Shown here piece by piece: positions 6,031-63,175 of a stretch of DNA of 64,000 bases. The translations under genes were made by a program, and so were the position numbers. Within the stretch, counting starts at the first letter, position 1. Every line of letters starts with the position of its first letter. The notes under the pieces were generated by a model. That model was not told the origin of the DNA and ran no database searches. It was given only the letters and a program-made list of their open reading frames with translations. The DNA is taken from NCBI GenBank assembly GCA_020847395.1, contig JADLCD010000107.1, positions 1,108 through 65,107 on the forward strand, given 5' to 3'. Origin of the DNA: Chitinophagaceae bacterium (GTDB lineage: Bacteria; Bacteroidota; Bacteroidia; Chitinophagales; Chitinophagaceae).

Positions 6031-6132
6031 GGTTATTGCAGCAAAGTTTACTGCAATGATAATTAAGGAAAAGTATTAAAGGAGAAAATTCTGGCTTTAA
6101 TTTCCTGTTGTATGGTAATTTACTCGTACCTG

Positions 6133-6205
6133 TTTCACGCAGCAATAACAGCGGAGCATCGGCTATCTTTGCGCCTTTGCTTCCTTATCTTCCCTTTGCG
6201 TGAAA
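6133..6205. repeat. Palindromic intergenic element, family 1 (termini TTTCACGCA / TGCGTGAAA)
   Basis: The 9-bp terminal inverted repeat has the same termini as the elements at 16561, 29097 and 28658. It starts 5 nt after the stop of the DUF3109 gene. Confidence 0.55.
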
Positions 6206-56325: not shown

Positions 56326-57171
56326 CTATACCTGTTTATCCAGCCAGAATTGTTGTATACTTTTGGTAAGTTTTGAAGTATATGTTTTATCTCTGAACTT
56401 TTTTACAAAGCGTATGCCACGCACAGCATTTGTAAGAAAAATTTCGTCTGCATAAAGCAAATCATCTACGGTTAAAGGTCTTTCCTGCACATTAAATCCC
56501 TGTAGTGGTAATTTCTGAAGCAGGAATCTGCGCACTACACCGGCAACGCATCCTTCACTTAATGGTGGCGTAAATATTTCATCATGCTTCACAATAAAAA
56601 CATTTGCAATGGTAGCATCAGCAATACGCCCGTATTGATTCAGCACAATACAATCACCCAGCTTATTTTGCTTGGCATATAATGCAGCCATTAAATAAGG
56701 AAGAAAATTATTAGACTTGATTTCTGAAAATATATTGCAGGCCTTAGTTGCATCTTCATACACATCAATTACAATACCTGTTGGCTGCTCTTTAAGGTGT
56801 GGCAATTTTTGCAATGCAATGCTTTGTATTACATAATTGGGGCGCATATCCTCCATATCATATAAGCCACCATCACTCCTGAATACCACAAGCCTGATTA
56901 AGGCATCTTCAAGCCGGTTTTTTTTACAAAGTGAAAGTATATCAGCCTCAAGATGAGTAGCGGTAAAAAAATCAGGAATTTTAAACTGCAATAATTTCAT
57001 TCCCTGCAGTAAGCGTTCAAAGTGAAATTGTTTGAGAATGATATTGTCTTTTACCACCCGCATGGTTTCAAACAACCCGTCTCCATACCTGAAAGATCGG
57101 TTGTCGGGGGATATTACAGCCTTACCTTCCCTGAAAAGCTGACCATTATAAACAAAATAACCGCCTGGCAT
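56326..57171 (-). CDS. Class IV aminotransferase family protein (PabC/aminodeoxychorismate lyase-like or D-amino acid/BCAT-like)
   Basis: 281 aa with the fold-type IV pattern (FRYGDGLFET...,.SNNFLPY, EIFLTNA..GI). The subfamily cannot be resolved by eye. Confidence 0.7.
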   Translation of the reverse strand: MPGGYFVYNGQLFREGKAVISPDNRSFRYGDGLFETMRVVKDNIILKQFHFERLLQGMKLLQFKIPDFFTATHLEADILSLCKKNRLEDALIRLVVFRSDGGLYDMEDMRPNYVIQSIALQKLPHLKEQPTGIVIDVYEDATKACNIFSEIKSNNFLPYLMAALYAKQNKLGDCIVLNQYGRIADATIANVFIVKHDEIFTPPLSEGCVAGVVRRFLLQKLPLQGFNVQERPLTVDDLLYADEIFLTNAVRGIRFVKKFRDKTYTSKLTKSIQQFWLDKQV

Positions 57172-57204
57172 AAACTTATAGCTAAATATTTAAAAAGAAT
57201 AAAA

Positions 57205-57879
57205 TTACTTATTCTCTATGATACCTGCTTTAATAGCATACATTACCAGTCCGGCCATTGATTTTGCACCGGTTTTAGATTTTAGTTTATCTCTGATAGC
57301 TTCAACGGTGCGGGGACTGAGGTCAACCATATCTGCTATTTCTTTTGTACTTTTTTCTTCACATATTAACCTGAGAATATGTTTTTCTTTATCAGTTAAT
57401 TTAACCTCAGTATTTACAAAATTATCATTGTTACGTTTGGTGCGCAATCCATCAAGAAGGGCTTTATTGGTAAGATCATTAAAATAATATTCGTTGATAT
57501 AGCAGGTTTTTATTGCTTCGTAAATTACCTCGGAATCAGAGTTTTTTGTGAGATACGCATTTGCACCCAATTCCATTAATTTAGAAATCATGGAATGATC
57601 ATTATGCATAGTAAGCATAATAATACGGATGTTGGGATATGCTTTTTTAATTTCCGGTAAGGTAGTAATGCCATCCATAACAGGCATCTGTATATCCAAT
57701 AAAACAACATCTGGTTGCAAATGTTTTAACAGGTGGATAAGCTGTTGCCCATTGTCGGCTTCGCCAATAAGGCGTACATCTTTCTTTGAGCTAAGTGCTG
57801 TTTTTACTCCTGCGCGAAATAAAACATGGTCATCTGCAATAACTACTTTGATTGCATTGCCTGCATCCTGAATTTTCAT
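57205..57879 (-). CDS. NarL/LuxR-family response regulator (orphan paralogue 1)
   Basis: Receiver domain (ADDH..., VVLLDIQMPVMDG, LTMH) plus a C-terminal LuxR HTH (LTDKEKHILRLICEEKSTKEIADMVDLSPRTVEAIR). Confidence 0.85.
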   Translation of the reverse strand: MKIQDAGNAIKVVIADDHVLFRAGVKTALSSKKDVRLIGEADNGQQLIHLLKHLQPDVVLLDIQMPVMDGITTLPEIKKAYPNIRIIMLTMHNDHSMISKLMELGANAYLTKNSDSEVIYEAIKTCYINEYYFNDLTNKALLDGLRTKRNNDNFVNTEVKLTDKEKHILRLICEEKSTKEIADMVDLSPRTVEAIRDKLKSKTGAKSMAGLVMYAIKAGIIENK

Positions 57880-58016
57880 TAATATGTCTTCTTTTCTTTC
57901 TAATAAGCGATTTAGGAATGGTTTTCATGGGTAGCGATTTTAGAGAATATCCTTAAAATACTTACAGATATTCAGGGTTTTGACAGTAAAATACTTTCAA
58001 AATATTATATTCACTT

Positions 58017-58682
58017 TTAATCAATTAATCTGTTTCTCATACCGTACATCACTAACCCTGCAATGGTTTTGGCCCCTACTTTTACTTTCATATTTTGTCT
58101 TACCGTTTCAATTGTTCGTGGGCTAAGGTAAACTTCTTTCGATATTTCCTCCGTTGTTTTATCATTAGCAATGAGGCGCAGTATTTTCAATTCTTTTTCA
58201 TTGAATTTAATAGGATTTGGATAGTATTGCTTTACCTGCTTTTTATGTTGCAATTTTAATAATACTGCTTTATTTACCAGATCGTTAAAATAAAAATCGT
58301 CGTTCATGCAGGTAAGGATAGCATTATAGATTTCCTCGGGATCAGTAGTTTTTGTGAGGTACGCATTAGCGCCCATTTCCATCATTTTGGAAATCATTTC
58401 CTGATCATCATACATAGTTAATACAATGATTTTAATTTGCTCATACTCCTTTCTTATGAGGGAAATTGCATTTACTCCATCCATCTCCGGCATGCGAATG
58501 TCCATTAATAATACATCCGGAAGCTTGATTTTCATTTTGTGCATTAAATCTTTGCCGTTTTCAGCTTCCCAAATAATTTTCAGATACTCTTTACCGCCCA
58601 TAGCCATCTTTATACCGTCGCGAAAAATCTTGTGGTCATCTGCAATTGAAACCTTAATCTGGTAGTTATTGATTGCGGTCAT
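58017..58682 (-). CDS. NarL/LuxR-family response regulator (orphan paralogue 2)
   Basis: Same architecture as paralogue 1 (ADDH, VLLMDIRMPEMDG, LuxR HTH). It shares the linker motif YFNDLVNKAVL with paralogues 1 and 3. Confidence 0.85.
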   Translation of the reverse strand: MTAINNYQIKVSIADDHKIFRDGIKMAMGGKEYLKIIWEAENGKDLMHKMKIKLPDVLLMDIRMPEMDGVNAISLIRKEYEQIKIIVLTMYDDQEMISKMMEMGANAYLTKTTDPEEIYNAILTCMNDDFYFNDLVNKAVLLKLQHKKQVKQYYPNPIKFNEKELKILRLIANDKTTEEISKEVYLSPRTIETVRQNMKVKVGAKTIAGLVMYGMRNRLID

Positions 58683-59052
58683 AGATATTAAATTAATATC
58701 TTTGGGTTATTAGTGGTTGATTATTATTAATTTATTAATTGCTCACAAACTTCGTAAATCAAAACAATTAAAATATAGTATTTATACTTAGTTAAAATAC
58801 GTTGTTTTTATTCATGAAAATTTCGCTAAACACGTAAACGTAGCACTTAAAATAGTGTTTTCCGAATTCACAAAAACAAGCATTTCCCCCTTGTATAAAC
58901 ATTTATAGCATTTTACCTTTGAAATGAAGTTGATTGGCGCGGATTTAGCGACCTCACATTAAATTCAATTCCTGAAACCGTCCAATAATTTATTTCCAAT
59001 ATTTATGAAAAAAACAAGCAAAAATCCAATGCCAATCAACTTTCCTTTTAAA

Positions 59053-59068
59053 AAGATCAATTGATCTT
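59053..59068. promoter_or_regulatory. 16-bp perfect palindrome AAGATCAATTGATCTT (candidate operator)
   Basis: Perfect dyad within the 717-bp divergent spacer. It overlaps the stop of a 19-codon mini-ORF. Confidence 0.3.
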
Positions 59069-59196
59069 CTCTATCATTGCATGTTTTCCAAAAATTTCTT
59101 ACTTCCGCAATTTAAATGTATTATAAAACCCTTTTAACCTCTGCGTTTTCAGGTCTTCATTTTGCTTATATCGCAATACTTATGCTAAATTACGTA

Positions 59197-59226
59197 TTAT
59201 AACATAGTAAAAATACTATGTTATAA
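59197..59226. promoter_or_regulatory. Palindrome with 13-bp arms, TTATAACATAGTA-AAAA-TACTATGTTATAA (candidate operator)
   Basis: Perfect inverted repeat about 175 bp upstream of the 59400 ATG. Its size and symmetry fit a dimeric HTH regulator site. Confidence 0.35.
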
Positions 59227-59399
59227 AAGTAATTATACTTTATTTAATTATCCGTATATTATTACTAAGCTATTGAAAATAAATAAATTATCACAATTTT
59301 TTTTTCTTTTTTCTTTTTATCCTATTGCCACTTTTCTTATGAGAGCGCATATTTGATATATATCAATATCAATTTCTTAAACCACAAAAAACTATAACT

Positions 59400-59771
59400 A
59401 TGACAAAAAACGACACTCTTTTACAGGAAAGCCCCCTCTCGCTTGAAAACATTGGAGAAAACATTGGATTTGAAAAAGGAGCAAAAATGGTAAAAGATTA
59501 CCACGATCTTCATGGTGAAACCCAATGCCATTTTGTTGGCAAAAGTATTCTGGAAAAACTGCTTAACCAGCCGGAATGCGTTGGGATAACCATTTACAAA
59601 GCGCTTAACGACAAAGGCGTTGACACCTATGTATTTATAGGAGTTGACAGCAACGGAAAAGCCATACTTGAGTATACAGCCGTAAACTACCAGGGAGATT
59701 TGAAGAAGGAATATGGTATTGTAGCTAATAAATTCTCCAAAAGGGAGCAATGGTTTATGTGGAGTTTTTAA
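59400..59771 (+). CDS. Hypothetical soluble 123-aa protein, first gene of the sensor operon
   Basis: ATG start, no signal peptide or TM helix, and no family I recognise. It is 22 nt upstream of the 7-TM gene. Confidence 0.5.
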   Translation: MTKNDTLLQESPLSLENIGENIGFEKGAKMVKDYHDLHGETQCHFVGKSILEKLLNQPECVGITIYKALNDKGVDTYVFIGVDSNGKAILEYTAVNYQGDLKKEYGIVANKFSKREQWFMWSF

Positions 59772-59793
59772 ATTAGGGTTTTAGTAGCTATAT

Positions 59794-60486
59794 TTGGTAA
59801 AACGTGAGCTCATCGGTAGTATTTTACAAAATATAGCGGTATTATCCGATTTTTTGCCCTTAGTCCTGTTTATATTTTTTTCAAAATCCAAAAAAAATTC
59901 AGGACTAAGGGTTGTTTTTTTTTTACTGATCTATTATATTTTCTTCAATCTCGTTATCAGTACCAATCAGCAGTTACAGGATAAGTATTTTTACCTGTTA
60001 GGAAGCCTTACTACTATCATTGAGTTTGCAATCCTTTCTTATCTTTTTTTCTGTATTATTGAATCGGGCAAATTTAAAAAGCTAATGTGGCTTATAACAG
60101 CAGTAGTTGGCACTTTCCTACTGTATTTTCTGATCACGTCTCCTCACAACGCTTTTGATTCCATTCCTTCGGGTGTTACCTCCCTTACACTGTTAATTTA
60201 TAGCATTTATTATTTATTTGAGAGAATGAAGGATCCCACTTCCCTGTATTTATTCTCCTCGCCGGTTTTTTGGGTAGTTGTTGCCATCGTAATATATTCA
60301 GCAGGAACTTTTTTTCCTTTTATTTATGCCCGGAACAATATGGAAGAAGCGGAGTTTAAAAATATTTATGATTTGATACATGATACACTTTATATTGTAA
60401 AAAACGTTATTTTTTCATTCGCAATTATGATTAAACCAAAACCTGAAAAAAAATACGCCGGTTCCGCTATATCCAAAAAACACTGA
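59794..60486 (+). CDS. Stand-alone 7-TM membrane protein, unknown function (candidate accessory sensor)
   Basis: 230 aa with a TTG start and seven clear hydrophobic helices. It has short loops and no soluble domain. It is 23 nt upstream of the kinase gene. Confidence 0.55.
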   Translation: MVKRELIGSILQNIAVLSDFLPLVLFIFFSKSKKNSGLRVVFFLLIYYIFFNLVISTNQQLQDKYFYLLGSLTTIIEFAILSYLFFCIIESGKFKKLMWLITAVVGTFLLYFLITSPHNAFDSIPSGVTSLTLLIYSIYYLFERMKDPTSLYLFSSPVFWVVVAIVIYSAGTFFPFIYARNNMEEAEFKNIYDLIHDTLYIVKNVIFSFAIMIKPKPEKKYAGSAISKKH

Positions 60487-60509
60487 ATTTATAAACCCTG
60501 AAGAAAACA

Positions 60510-61340
60510 ATGATACTATTACAAGTGCAGTCAACTACCCAACCTATACTCCTTTTTGGCACTATGGGTATGCTTGCGCTTGCCATAGGGCTTATTGTAT
60601 TCATTATTTTTCATCAGCGAAGGGTTATCCGCTATCAGTTACAGCTACAGGAAATGGAAGAAGAACAACAAAAAATTTTATTGAACGCTTCCATACGCTG
60701 GCAGGAAGAAGAACGGCAACGTATAGCCGCTGATTTGCATGATGATGCCGGTCCATTACTTGCTACAGCCCGGCTATACTTAAACGAAAACCTTGTACAC
60801 CAGGATCTCAATACCCAGCTTCAAAGCATTTATAATGCCAAGCAAATTATTGATGATACTATACAGTTAATCCGGAATATATCTCATAGTCTTATGCCTC
60901 CCACGCTAAAAAATTTTGGATTAGAATCTGCAGTAAATGATCTTTTTCAAAAAATCAGCGGGTCGGGCGTTGTAAATGCCAGCTCAAGATTTCACGATTA
61001 CCGTCAAAGATTAAGACCAGAACAAGAATTACTGATATTCCGCGTTATACAGGAACTGGTAAATAATATTTTGAAACACAGTAGTTCCAGTTTTATCCAT
61101 GTAACGCAAAATTATAACGAAGATAAATTCTTTATACGGTTACATCATGACGGCAGGGGGATTACGCAAGCCGATTTTGAAAGATTAAATAAAAGTGCGC
61201 TTGGGCTTGGACTAAAAAATATTCAAAGCCGCGCCAAAGTTCTACAGGCAAAAATTGAATTTGAAAGAGACCCTTCTGAAACATATTTTAAAGTAACATT
61301 AGAAGTACCTATTGAAGATTACGAAATGATGAGTAATTAA
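60510..61340 (+). CDS. Sensor histidine kinase, HisKA_3 type, with a single N-terminal TM helix and no extracytoplasmic domain
   Basis: One TM helix (ILLFGTMGMLALAIGLIVFIIF), a coiled-coil, an H-box EERQRIAADLHDDAGPLL (HisKA_3), and an HATPase_c domain with N and G boxes (ELVNNILKH, GLGLKNI). Confidence 0.85.
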   Translation: MILLQVQSTTQPILLFGTMGMLALAIGLIVFIIFHQRRVIRYQLQLQEMEEEQQKILLNASIRWQEEERQRIAADLHDDAGPLLATARLYLNENLVHQDLNTQLQSIYNAKQIIDDTIQLIRNISHSLMPPTLKNFGLESAVNDLFQKISGSGVVNASSRFHDYRQRLRPEQELLIFRVIQELVNNILKHSSSSFIHVTQNYNEDKFFIRLHHDGRGITQADFERLNKSALGLGLKNIQSRAKVLQAKIEFERDPSETYFKVTLEVPIEDYEMMSN

Positions 61341-61366
61341 GGAATTTATAACCGAATAATCACTTT

Positions 61367-62017
61367 ATGAGCATTATTAAAGTTGCAATTGCTGATGATC
61401 ATAAAATATTCCGGAAAGGGGTAATTCTTTCTTTGCGCCCATATACTAATATAAAATTTGTATTGGAGGCCGAAAATGGAGAAGAGCTGCTTAATGGATT
61501 ATCTGCGGCAGAACCGGATATCGTTTTAATGGATTTGCGTATGCCTGTGAAAGATGGAATTGAGGCAACAAAAATAATCAGCAAAGATTTTCCTAAAATT
61601 CATGTAATTGTTTTAACAATGTATGAAGATGAGCGCTTTGTATCTCATTTAATGGAAAATGGAGCAAACGGTTATTTACTCAAAAGTGCCGACCCTTCAG
61701 AGATCAAAAAGGCAATTGTAGAAGTTGTAACCAAAGGTTACTATCTTAACAATTTCGTGAATAAAGTATTATTGAAAAAATCTCATGCCCGCACAAAAAC
61801 AATTCCTTCACTTAACAGTGAAATTGTTATAAGCGATAAAGAACGGGAGGTTTTACGTTTGTTATGTATGGAATTTACTGCTACCGAAATCGCCCAAAAA
61901 ATGGAAATAAGCCCAAGAACTGTTGAGGCAATTAAGGATAGGCTTATGGCAAGGTTTAATGTAAAAAATACAGCGGGACTTGTGTTTTTTGCAGTTCGTA
62001 ATAACTTAATTGATTGA
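61367..62017 (+). CDS. NarL/LuxR-family response regulator (cognate, paralogue 3)
   Basis: ADDH, IVLMDLRMPVKDG and a LuxR HTH (ISDKEREVLRLLCMEFTATEIAQKMEISPRTVEAIK). Confidence 0.9.
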   Translation: MSIIKVAIADDHKIFRKGVILSLRPYTNIKFVLEAENGEELLNGLSAAEPDIVLMDLRMPVKDGIEATKIISKDFPKIHVIVLTMYEDERFVSHLMENGANGYLLKSADPSEIKKAIVEVVTKGYYLNNFVNKVLLKKSHARTKTIPSLNSEIVISDKEREVLRLLCMEFTATEIAQKMEISPRTVEAIKDRLMARFNVKNTAGLVFFAVRNNLID

Positions 62018-62770
62018 TTTACCCTCAGTTTTCAAATATTCTTCTATAATATTTTTTATATTGATTTGTTGCCAGCTATAATCTATACGGTTTGCAAACA
62101 CAGGATTGATTTCATTCATAATTGTATAACACTGATGCATTAACGCTTCTATGGTTTTTACACCTTGTAATGATAGCCCTGCATCCAAAATAGAATTATC
62201 CTCGTTAGCAATAGCATCGTCTTTCATATCGTCCATATCATCGGTAAGAAGATAAAATGTCATTAAAGCATGCCAGGCATCAATCAATTTTTTCTTTATA
62301 TCGTTCTCAAAATCAAAAAAACATAAAGTAAATAAATAGCTGTCTACCCTGTTCAGCGCTTTTAATGGCAGCCCGAAATCTATACCATTAACGTGGTTGA
62401 TTCCTGCAAAATATTGTTTTAGTTCTTCAAGCAATTTGGGGTTTTTGCCATAGGCTGCAGCAATATCCACGCAATCCTTAATATGTGCTTCCCGGCTTGT
62501 TTTTTCAAACTCCTCCTTACCTATGCAATCCATAATAGCTTCTATAAAACGGGCGTGCTCTTCACTAAGCAATGCCTTCTTGGGCAATCCAAGCCGGTAT
62601 TGCAAATCTACATAGGTGGGAATAAAAAGATAACCAGGCATTGGAGTTATATATAAATACCTGCCTTTCCAGTACAAATTGTTTTCCGGAACTTTTCTGT
62701 CAATAAAAAATTGACCAATCTCCATATCAATCCCGTAAAATAGTTTCAAATCATCTTTACTCGCAAACAT
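62006..62770 (-). CDS. Hypothetical 254-aa protein with the acidic motif DDMDDMKDD
   Basis: Good-length ORF with no TM helix or signal. It carries LLTDDMDDMKDDAIANEDNS near residue 175. Its 3' end overlaps the convergent regulator gene by 12 nt. Confidence 0.5.
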   Translation of the reverse strand: MFASKDDLKLFYGIDMEIGQFFIDRKVPENNLYWKGRYLYITPMPGYLFIPTYVDLQYRLGLPKKALLSEEHARFIEAIMDCIGKEEFEKTSREAHIKDCVDIAAAYGKNPKLLEELKQYFAGINHVNGIDFGLPLKALNRVDSYLFTLCFFDFENDIKKKLIDAWHALMTFYLLTDDMDDMKDDAIANEDNSILDAGLSLQGVKTIEALMHQCYTIMNEINPVFANRIDYSWQQINIKNIIEEYLKTEGKSIN

Positions 62771-62818
62771 ATTACTCAGTTTCTAAAACAATATTGCTTC
62801 CTTTTTCAGTAATTTTTT

Positions 62819-63175
62819 TTAAGAGTTTGGTATCCGGAAAAGTTCTTCCCGCCTCCGTTGTGCTTTGGCATTTAATGAATCTATTAAAATTTTATACGCC
62901 TGAGGGCGAGATTTATAATAGTCATAACTATTTTTAAACTGCAACTCCGTTATACCATACAGCAAATATATCTTCTGGTACTCTTTATTTAATGCTGCTT
63001 TTTTGTCTTTAGAAGAATCTTTAGCAAGGTATATATTCACAAAATCTTCCGCCACATTCATATCAAACAAAACACTTCCCATTTTATCTGAAGAAATAAT
63101 TTCAGTAACTGATTTTTGCTCACGGCAAGAAATAAAAATCAGTAAAAGCGATATAAAAAGTACATTCATTTTCAT
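62819..63175 (-). CDS. DUF4296 domain lipoprotein
   Basis: 118 aa with a lipobox (LIFISC). The pattern ...M..VL.DM..AE......................Y..I...Y.I....F..S..YY is typical of DUF4296. Confidence 0.6.
   Translation of the reverse strand: MKMNVLFISLLLIFISCREQKSVTEIISSDKMGSVLFDMNVAEDFVNIYLAKDSSKDKKAALNKEYQKIYLLYGITELQFKNSYDYYKSRPQAYKILIDSLNAKAQRRREELFRIPNS

Follow-up and report, generated by a model that had tools for sequence, protein, structure and literature searches.

The 64-kb stretch of DNA analysed here (the window), from a Chitinophagaceae bacterium (contig JADLCD010000107.1), carries a two-component signalling module in which a minimal histidine kinase is encoded directly behind a stand-alone membrane protein of 230 amino acids (aa) with seven transmembrane (TM) helices, hereafter tm7. 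The two genes are adjacent in every related locus that holds the kinase. The module is shared throughout a family of soil bacteria, the Chitinophagaceae, and by some other Bacteroidota. We propose, with moderate confidence, that the module is a LiaFSR-like three-component system, in which tm7 would be an obligate membrane partner of the kinase and most likely its input subunit, the response regulators would autoregulate the locus through palindromes in a long divergent spacer, and a protein of 123 aa (p123), or the micro open reading frame (micro-ORF) found in its place, would be accessory. An earlier note, made from the sequence alone, had described six ORFs with their spacers and motifs, and all of them were found again at the same coordinates:

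57205-57879, minus strand: RR-A, response regulator of the NarL/FixJ type, 224 aa (Pfam Response_reg 5e-30, GerE 2e-11)
58017-58682, minus strand: RR-B, response regulator of the NarL/FixJ type, 221 aa, divergent from the kinase operon (Response_reg 7e-27, GerE 2e-9)
58683-59399: AT-rich divergent control region, 717 bp, 25.4% GC
59400-59771, plus strand: p123, soluble protein of 123 aa; family uncurated; C-terminal tail rich in Trp (…QWFMWSF)
59794-60486, plus strand: tm7, stand-alone 7-TM membrane protein, 230 aa, TTG start
60510-61340, plus strand: minimal HisKA_3 histidine kinase, 276 aa (HisKA_3 and HATPase_c)
61367-62017, plus strand: RR-C, response regulator of the NarL/FixJ type, 216 aa, cognate by position (Response_reg 2e-24, GerE 6e-12)

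The spacers p123/tm7, tm7/kinase and kinase/RR-C measure 22, 23 and 26 nucleotides (nt), and RR-A and RR-B are separated by 137 bp. No second kinase, receiver or tm7 paralog was found elsewhere in the 64-kb window.

Gene linkage carries most of the argument. The dataset comprises 98 related loci, 4 obtained by exact-protein look-up, 50 from species-representative genomes and 44 from metagenomes, annotated by profiles made from the window proteins; they are from Chitinophagaceae plus one Arcicella (L053) and one metagenome-assembled genome (MAG) of an unclassified member of Bacteroidota (L054). The tm7 gene lies directly upstream of the kinase gene in 91 of the 91 loci holding a kinase, a count that does not represent 91 independent events because most of these loci are orthologous and syntenic, with the same flanks. 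RR-C is found downstream of the kinase in 67 of the 70 loci with room for it, and RR-B divergently upstream in all 64 loci whose sequence shows that side. Among the genera represented are Agriterribacter, Terrimonas, Pollutibacter, Pseudoflavitalea, Puia, Paraflavitalea, Segetibacter and Flavihumibacter; Agriterribacter humi YJ03 (L016) is one of the carriers. The nearest relatives of the window come from an Agriterribacter MAG (L005) and from Terrimonas sp. NS-102 (L006); their proteins are 99% (kinase), 92-93% (p123) and 86-88% (tm7) identical to those of the window. The orthologous locus is flanked by a class-IV aminotransferase gene upstream and by DUF4296, DUF4835 and coaBC downstream.

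Independent support comes from loci of other descent. First, paralogous 7TM'-kinase'-regulator' triplets are present between RR-A and RR-B in many genera. Second, the Arcicella locus carries p123-7TM-kinase-regulator, and the unclassified Bacteroidota locus 7TM-kinase-regulator; their kinases are only 24-31% identical to that of the window (24% in the latter). Third, 11 of approximately 16 evaluable non-orthologous kinases have an ORF of about 225 aa with 5-8 TM segments directly upstream, often overlapping the kinase start. All the tm7-linked kinases are alike in build, with one TM helix and HisKA_3. The expectation that tm7 would be co-conserved with the kinase and the regulator is therefore upheld, also in paralogous and distant copies.

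The proteins of the locus evolve at very different rates. Across genera, identity is 68-99% for the kinase, 70-99% for RR-B and 70-98% for RR-C, clearly more conserved than the flanking class-IV aminotransferase (33-95%), and it falls to 24-40% for tm7 and to 34-50% for p123; the tm7-kinase linkage holds despite this divergence of tm7. A "distant" tm7 subfamily was considered as an independent test of linkage and rejected: the adjoining kinase matches that of the window at E ~1e-130, which makes it the same orthologous locus, so that this subfamily speaks to evolutionary rates and not to independence.

Some relatives differ from the window in gene content. Many genera outside Agriterribacter have the second triplet between RR-A and RR-B and, right after RR-C, a kinase-less third 7-TM paralog (L026, 1998-4112 and 8301-8960; L031, 2071-4167 and 8317-8988; L035, L044 and L094 alike), and the lineage of the window has neither. 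In the complete genome of Paraflavitalea speifideaquila BL16E (L045 5493-7362, NZ_CP135920.1), the p123 gene is broken into two ORFs and that of the kinase into three. This points to frameshifts or pseudogenisation of the module in this species, or else to errors in the sequence; L051, L052 and L068, which are MAG and metagenome loci, show comparable splits.

The kinase has little of its own with which to receive a signal. HisKA_3 (PF07730, 30.5 bits, cutoff 24) and HATPase_c (PF02518, 39.6 bits, cutoff 26.4) both exceed their gathering scores, and no further domain was found with Pfam or NCBIfam. The protein consists of a 12-residue tail, one TM helix (residues ~13-35), a coil of about 30 residues and the catalytic part, with the H-box at residue 77. 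Both the domain searches and the hydropathy profile thus agree with the first description of a one-helix kinase that lacks an input domain. Intramembrane-sensing kinases are short, and their input part is a pair of TM helices whose extracellular linker is very short. The assignment to this class (LiaS/BceS type) made in the earlier note holds in that no other input domain is present, but not in the number of helices, which is one and not two; by analogy, the kinase appears to work like the intramembrane-sensing class in an even more reduced form.

The closest solved kinases are VraS and DesK. The segment ERQRIAADLH77D aligns to EERQRIARDLHD of DesK and fits the H-box pattern ERxRIAxxLHD, and the H-box ERQRIAADLHDDAGPLL is identical in 71 distinct orthologs. 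Two other motifs are atypical. HisKA_3 kinases carry the motif DxxxQ/H, and substitution of the Q/H residue abolishes phosphatase activity but not kinase or phosphotransfer activity (PMC11502775). The kinase of the window departs from this motif: it reads H-D-D-A-G-P, with Pro82 aligned to Gln193 in DxxxQ of DesK, and LHDDAGP is present in 71 of 71 orthologs. In the G1 box, H213-D-G-R-G, a His occupies the place of the canonical Asp (DNGKG in VraS, DDGTG in DesK); this His is conserved in all orthologs, whereas D[ND]GxG, the canonical form, is retained in the 7TM-linked kinases that are paralogous or distant. The N-box (NNILKHS) and the G2 box (GLGLKNI) are normal. The dimerization and histidine phosphotransfer (DHp) domain is nearly frozen, with a mean top-residue frequency of 0.93, and the TM helix, at 0.79, is well conserved too. 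Judged by the two atypical motifs, kinases of this lineage probably have no phosphatase activity of their own and a slightly unusual mode of nucleotide binding, and this makes an accessory "off" factor plausible.

Such a factor could be tm7 itself. Alone or together with p123, it would act as a negative regulator of the kinase or as its phosphatase cofactor, holding the kinase off or supplying the "off" reaction that the kinase lacks. The invariant absence of the phosphatase residue favours this role. A small accessory protein and a membrane protein encoded upstream of the kinase also parallel saePQRS. Moreover, the genes follow one another as in liaFSR, with an accessory membrane protein ahead of a HisKA_3 kinase and a NarL-type regulator, and LiaF is described as inhibitory (PMC7191749). 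However, tm7 has no sequence or fold relation to LiaF, VraT or SaeQ, and an inhibited kinase would still need a source of input, for which nothing else is encoded at the locus. We regard this explanation as possible, if unlikely; apart from the sign of the effect it is compatible with the three-component system proposed above, and inhibition and sensing are not mutually exclusive.

For tm7 itself, no homology to a transporter or enzyme family was found. Hydropathy gave five strong and two weaker TM segments, and an AlphaFold2 model (predicted local distance difference test, pLDDT, 66; predicted template modelling score, pTM, 0.62) has helices at residues 2-29, 36-56, 59-88, 92-115, 123-145, 157-182 and 198-212. 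Clusters of Lys/Arg in loops 1, 3 and 5 and in the C-terminal tail point to an N-out/C-in topology. No loop exceeds about 14 residues and there is no soluble domain, so that the seven helices without a soluble domain proposed at first are borne out by hydropathy, model and charge pattern alike. In a word-index search tm7 and p123 seemed limited to Agriterribacter and Chitinophagaceae MAGs, with about 30 clusters; an exhaustive profile search gave 1,376 representative clusters at 50% identity for the tm7 family, 434 of them at E <= 1e-10. The best 150 of the 1,376 relatives are all stand-alone proteins of ~90-270 aa, and no fusion with a kinase (Rosetta stone) is found among these 150.

No match to tm7 was found in Pfam, in NCBIfam or among PDB sequences or folds; in a Foldseek search of the model against the PDB the best E was 0.41, with only a generic likeness to G-protein-coupled receptors or helical bundles. 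Among 77 diverse members there was no consistent Pfam match (seven unrelated single-member matches) and none above cutoff in NCBIfam. The profile 7TMR-DISM_7TM (PF07695, gathering 29 bits) matched one of the 77 at E = 1.4e-3 and the family consensus at 12.5 bits (E = 0.14). The absence of transporter or enzyme homology thus stood in the Pfam, NCBIfam and Foldseek searches and in those with the 77 members and the consensus.

Conservation in tm7 is centred on TM5-TM6. Near-invariant residues are T74 and E77 (TM3), D122 and E143 (at the two ends of TM5), F152, Y154, F159 and W160, and further Y168, G171, F173, F174 and F207; conservation is lowest in the periplasmic loops. This pattern fits a partner protein whose conserved intramembrane core would touch the kinase helix or bind something in the bilayer, while the remainder drifts. 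Public gene calls for tm7 are inconsistent, with lengths of 130-240 aa (P0001, P0008, P0018, P0028 and others) and 210 aa in the call for the window itself; gene callers pick internal starts. The long TTG-initiated ORF that includes TM1 is probably correct because protein-level conservation extends over its N-terminal ~20 residues (…RNIAxLSDxLPL…), and many database entries are truncated at the N-terminus.

The fast evolution of tm7 relative to the kinase, as well as the extra kinase-less paralogs after RR-C in many genera, would also fit a tm7 that is transcribed with the system as its effector or target and has no signalling role, such as a protein of membrane stress or homeostasis, the kinase being regulated through its own TM helix, in the style of the DesK minimal sensor, or by cytoplasmic cues. 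One tm7 member is named "FtsH-binding integral membrane protein" by JGI, and the family consensus, an artificial sequence, resembles the BI-1/YccA 7-TM stress proteins below threshold (Bax1-I, PF01027, 26.1 bits against a gathering score of 34.1). However, this match is register-shifted (residues 6-136 against profile positions 42-169) and lacks the conserved C-terminal motifs of that family, the tm7 of the window has no Bax1-I match in Pfam at E <= 1, and no BI-1 structure is among the Foldseek matches of the model. Furthermore, the paralogous kinases usually have their own tm7 paralog directly upstream, often with overlapping frames, which is a better fit to a stoichiometric partner. An effector role for tm7 is therefore improbable in our view.

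We now turn to the output side of the proposed three-component system. RR-A, RR-B and RR-C are 43-49% identical to each other, and all three pass the cutoffs for Response_reg and GerE. The full phospho-acceptor set (D16, D17, D62, T90 and K112) is kept in each of them, and they have a linker motif in common (YYFNDLTNKALL, FYFNDLVNKAVL and YYLNNFVNKVLL, respectively). No NCBIfam equivalog reaches its cutoff (the best, MctR, scores 128-152 bits against 300), and hence no named ortholog can be assigned. All three share the signature DDHx[LI]FRxG[VI] in alpha1, the kinase-docking face, where the regulator of the paralogous module reads DDH-x-L-[LM]-R-x-A-L, and the recognition-helix core SPRT[VI]E[AT][IV][RK] is the same in all three. 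Their description as paralogues is confirmed. Where RR-A is present in relatives, its orthologs are 65-96% identical and adjoin the class-IV aminotransferase gene. The common alpha1 and recognition helix are consistent with one kinase serving three regulators that may read similar DNA; since the regulators are paralogues, shared ancestry alone could also explain both. The earlier idea of one kinase and three regulators is locally true in the window but is not general, as many genera insert a second triplet between RR-A and RR-B.

The long divergent spacer is kept in the relatives (median ~750 bp, range 320-1184), and in the window it contains three copies of a palindrome, AGTA-N4-TACT. These three and a near-cognate site upstream of RR-A are:

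58777-58788: palindrome site 1, AGTATTTATACT, ~95 nt upstream of the RR-B start codon
59197-59226: palindrome site 2, a perfect 13+13-nt inverted repeat, TTATAACATAGTA-AAAA-TACTATGTTATAA, with the core AGTAAAAATACT at 59206-59217
59228-59239: palindrome site 3, AGTAATTATACT, 22 nt start-to-start from site 2
57985-57995: near-cognate AGTA-AAA-TACT with a 3-nt spacer, 106 nt upstream of the RR-A start codon, a weak candidate

The whole 64-kb window has 4 matches to AGTA-N4-TACT against 0.6 expected, 3 of them within the 717-bp spacer, where they are invariant across four aligned genomes. In L001, an exact copy with the N4 spacing is also present between RR-A and RR-B (6126-6137). The core GTA-W4-TAC occurs in the divergent spacer of 64 of 64 loci, with 112 spacer sites against ~2.7 expected from composition-matched shuffles (maximum 9), and its density is 2.3 per kb in the spacer versus 0.066 per kb outside (35-fold). 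The consensus is A-T-[A/C]-GTA-AAAW-TAC-[T/G]-A, and TAGTA-N4-TACTA marks the spacer. The main palindrome is ~150-250 nt ahead of p123; in loci where p123 is missing, it is ~250-350 nt ahead of tm7. The other copies in the window (33596, 37064, 42028, 59985 and 63556) are all inside ORFs at about the chance rate, and no regulon member was found among them. A 5-4-5 palindrome is the kind of site bound by NarL/RcsB-type dimers. TAGTA-N4-TACTA is likely to be the operator of one or more of the three regulators.

Closer to the genes, a second kind of conserved signal is present:

59348-59366, plus strand: conserved block CATATTTGATATATATCAA, a -7-like box cAnnTTTG with the 14-bp palindrome TTGATATATATCAA, conserved in 4 genomes

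The block lies 34-52 nt upstream of the p123 ATG. Its palindrome is perfect (59353-59366, 34 nt upstream of the p123 start), overlaps the TTTG of the -7-like box and is conserved with one change in L001, L002 and L004. TTGATATATATCAA is a possible second operator, distinct from TAGTA-N4-TACTA, and the block as a whole a possible promoter or operator. A promoter-like match, TTGCCA-17-CATATT, is at 59325-59353; sigma-70-type promoter and terminator scans did not rise above shuffles, and the sigma-70 model is not suited to Bacteroidota.

As stated in the earlier note, p123 belongs to no recognisable family: there is no match in Pfam or NCBIfam, and a profile search of PDB sequences gave nothing at E <= 10. 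It has no TM segment and no signal peptide. An AlphaFold2 model from a 20-sequence alignment is poor (pLDDT 42), and Foldseek on this poor model returned noise only. The sequence pattern is loosely suggestive of PepSY, a likeness on which no assignment is based. A profile of diverse p123 sequences recovered 520 clusters of ~120-135 aa, all "hypothetical" and without any Pfam domain among them; the tm7 and p123 families are both real, sizeable and uncurated. p123 is not a constant component of the module: it is present in only 48 of the 64 loci where it is scorable. In at least 11 of the 16 loci without p123, an unannotated mini-ORF of 22-31 codons, for example MVPTKKVFRAVPPPPDDVLGWWAD and MTKNKTFRSFPPENDVVPTWWEVE, is found just upstream of tm7:

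Mini-ORF: L058, 4884-4955; L060, 2114-2194; L064, 3584-3658; L065, 1519-1596; L071, 4866-4934; L073, 2547-2624; L076, 1658-1738; L077, 2235-2309; L078, 4874-4951; L081, 4815-4910

The mini-ORF consensus is M-x-T-K-K-x-F-R-A-x-PPP…WW[DE]x. Its upstream context is the same as that of p123 (…AAAAACTTACTGAT-ATG), and its C-terminus resembles the …PRPGWWSWSF tail of p123. As only the N-terminus and the Pro/Trp tail are retained, the ~100-aa middle of p123 is dispensable. The mini-ORF could encode a micropeptide or a leader peptide; codon-position differences (138/126/173 at positions 1/2/3) do not discriminate.

The start of tm7 is itself enclosed in a predicted structure:

59787-59837, plus strand: predicted RNA hairpin enclosing the tm7 start codon, with the box TATATTTG (59789-59796) in its 5' arm

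This box is present at the tm7 start in 74 of 78 loci versus 2.5 expected by chance, and it matches TAnnTTTG, the -7 promoter consensus of Bacteroidota. The fold has z = -2.5 in the window and about -4.7 in L064 (3678-3727) and L078 (4975-5018), and in the p123-less loci the hairpin has a 14-bp stem, AAAGGTTTTCTATA/TATAGAAAACCTTT, with G·U-compatible variants. The box and hairpin may serve as an internal promoter (-7 box), couple translation, or do both.

A short conserved ORF followed by a stable hairpin at the tm7 start raises the question of whether the small upstream gene is the key input. The p123/mini-ORF product would then be a peptide signal or a leader peptide, and tm7 would process or export the peptide, or translation of the small gene would gate tm7 synthesis. 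Polyproline and Trp-rich motifs are typical of ribosome-arrest peptides. However, full-length p123 has a ~100-aa globular middle and neither a signal peptide nor a TM segment, its tail in the window lacks polyproline, the codon-position test is indifferent, and tm7 has no AgrB-like or peptidase match. We consider this explanation very improbable.

Taken together, these data lead us back to the partnership of tm7 and kinase, for which we infer the following mechanism. The one-anchor HisKA_3 kinase, having no input domain, would act in complex with the tm7 protein encoded just upstream. Lacking any extramembrane domain, tm7 would perceive or relay a membrane-borne signal, such as lipid state, an ion, a proton or a small hydrophobic ligand, most likely through its TM5-TM6 core and the membrane-embedded acidic residues E77, D122 and E143. 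The signal would pass helix-to-helix from tm7 to the TM segment and juxtamembrane coil of the kinase, which would then phosphorylate RR-C and probably also the paralogous RR-B and RR-A. As dimers, possibly mixed, the regulators would bind TAGTA-N4-TACTA in the divergent spacer and thereby autoregulate both transcription units, together with a regulon elsewhere. p123, or its micro-ORF remnant, may be an accessory cytoplasmic factor whose conserved part is the Pro/Trp-rich tail.

Besides the common descent of most loci, several observations weigh against this mechanism. Adjacency does not separate a sensor from an inhibitor, a phosphatase cofactor or a co-regulated effector; sensing, the role originally proposed for tm7, is one of several that fit, along with inhibitor, phosphatase cofactor and scaffold. 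The paralogous kinases of L033, L034, L039 and L040 have no polytopic ORF upstream. The periplasmic loops of tm7 are short and not conserved and thus offer no obvious ligand site. Because of the His at the G1 Asp position, the ATP-dependent activity of the kinase may possibly be unusual. RR-A is unlike RR-B and RR-C at several alpha1 positions, and given the second kinase module in many genera, RR-A or RR-B may use another kinase. Finally, the palindromes of the window are ~130-190 nt upstream of the p123 start, which is far for a class I/II activator if the proximal -7-like box is the promoter.

The spacer contains one more conserved element, between RR-B and p123:

58920-59049, plus strand: conserved element of ~125 nt, with a 13-bp closing stem (58927-58939 / 59030-59042)
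Further copies: L033, 1294-1419; L035, 62-184; L038, 3641-3767; L039, 983-1107; L095, 2836-2964

With nhmmer this element was found at a fixed position and orientation in the RR-B/p123 spacer of ~35 loci, and extra copies occur upstream of RR-A or of the second module. Its invariant ends, AAGTTGATTG…CARTCAACTT, form the 13-bp stem, and three TCCAAT-like blocks are internal. The stem varies by wobble and compensatory changes (UA/UG, AU/GU, CG<->UA) that fit the plus strand, and independent hairpin insertions are seen at one variable point of the element in L080 and L089. RNAalifold supported the closing stem only and no internal helices, and Rfam gave no match in 57000-62900 at E <= 1. From these patterns the element is a candidate structured RNA or composite DNA control element.

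The AT-richness of the segment reported earlier was reproduced. At 33.7% GC, compared with 39.0% on average in the window, the module is its lowest-GC 4.8-kb stretch. A foreign island was considered and ruled out: throughout the family, the locus in its entirety and the housekeeping genes that flank it keep their synteny, and therefore AT-richness is not a sign of foreign origin here. Convergent with RR-C, a 254-aa ORF is found at 62006-62770 (minus strand), the 3' ends overlapping by 12 nt. It has no Pfam or NCBIfam family; it is kept at the same position in a subset of relatives (44-91% identity) and parted from RR-C by the extra 7-TM paralog in others.

Comparison with known systems suggests a familiar architecture with new helper families. 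LiaFSR and VraTSR, three-component systems of cell-envelope stress, have the same order of a membrane accessory protein, a small input-less HisKA_3 kinase and a NarL/LuxR-type regulator, and autoregulation through inverted-repeat sites is likely to be a further likeness. In these systems the kinase is described as relying on a separately encoded membrane protein (PMC7191749; bioRxiv 10.1101/2025.01.23.634444). However, tm7 is unrelated to LiaF and VraT, which join a membrane N-terminus to a conserved C-terminal domain, and has seven TM helices, no C-terminal soluble domain and no Pfam match; in the kinase of the window there is a single TM helix instead of two, the phosphatase position is occupied by Pro and the G1 box reads HDGRG; and there are three paralogous regulators versus one, in a didermic Bacteroidota host as opposed to Firmicutes. 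SaePQRS of Staphylococcus aureus consists of a small accessory protein, a membrane accessory protein, a kinase whose "sensor" is membrane helices only, and a regulator, and the four-gene layout is loosely alike. However, SaeS is a HisKA kinase with an OmpR-type regulator and SaeP is a lipoprotein, there is no sequence relation, and the small protein of the window is cytoplasmic and dispensable in a quarter of lineages. DesK/DesR, a membrane thermosensor of Bacillus subtilis, also pairs a HisKA_3 kinase with a NarL-type regulator, has an alignable H-box (ERQRIA-DLHD) and presumably reads its signal in the membrane. In contrast to the window, where the polytopic part is a separate protein and both motifs deviate, DesK senses by its own five TM helices and has canonical DxxxQ and DxGxG.

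The 7TMR-DISM receptors, in which a 7-TM domain is fused to a kinase or cyclase, and BI-1/YccA proteins resemble tm7 in their seven TM helices, similar size and weak sub-threshold profile matches, but no curated cutoff is reached, the FDS…YLYEQ…FW…GTFF core of tm7 is not covered, no kinase fusions occur in the best 150 of the 1,376 relatives, and Foldseek lends the likeness no support. As to the regulators, several NarL-type proteins with near-identical recognition helices at one locus recall branched pathways and NarL-family heterodimers (RcsB partners, BldM-WhiI), and the 5-4-5 layout of the palindrome recalls the sites of NarL/RcsB-type dimers. Response-regulator heterodimers are treated in PMC4125116. 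Here heterodimers and one-to-many phosphotransfer are only hypothetical, and unlike in those systems all three regulators have complete phospho-acceptor pockets. The locus is thus a member of none of the compared systems. Its novelty lies in the families of the partner proteins, in a kinase that is both atypical and frozen, in the layout with three regulators and in a very clean operator signal. Literature searches found neither a curated family nor a paper for the module, in agreement with its original description as undescribed.

A more far-reaching interpretation, which we find doubtful, is that the tm7 family is an unrecognised class of stand-alone 7-TM receptors, each gating a one-helix HisKA_3 kinase. 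The "off" state or activity of the phosphatase-less kinase with its atypical G1 box would be set by tm7 and the small protein or micropeptide, three near-frozen regulators would act as homo- or heterodimers on one palindrome, and with the structured RNA this would amount to a master circuit of the whole family, built of protein, peptide and RNA layers.

Input-less kinases are widespread, and few of them have been matched with their true sensor; the present locus is a clean and conserved example from Bacteroidota, a phylum whose two-component signalling has received little study. It gives an uncurated 7-TM family of ~1,400 clusters a specific partner, brings with it an uncurated small-protein family of 520 clusters and supplies a precise candidate operator, and its kinase lineage deviates from two textbook catalytic motifs although the kinase gene ranks with the most conserved ones of the locus. 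If the tm7-kinase partnership is true, new family definitions would be justified, and many "hypothetical" and several mis-started genes would be better annotated. The locus would also be a tractable model of helix-to-helix signalling between separate membrane proteins.

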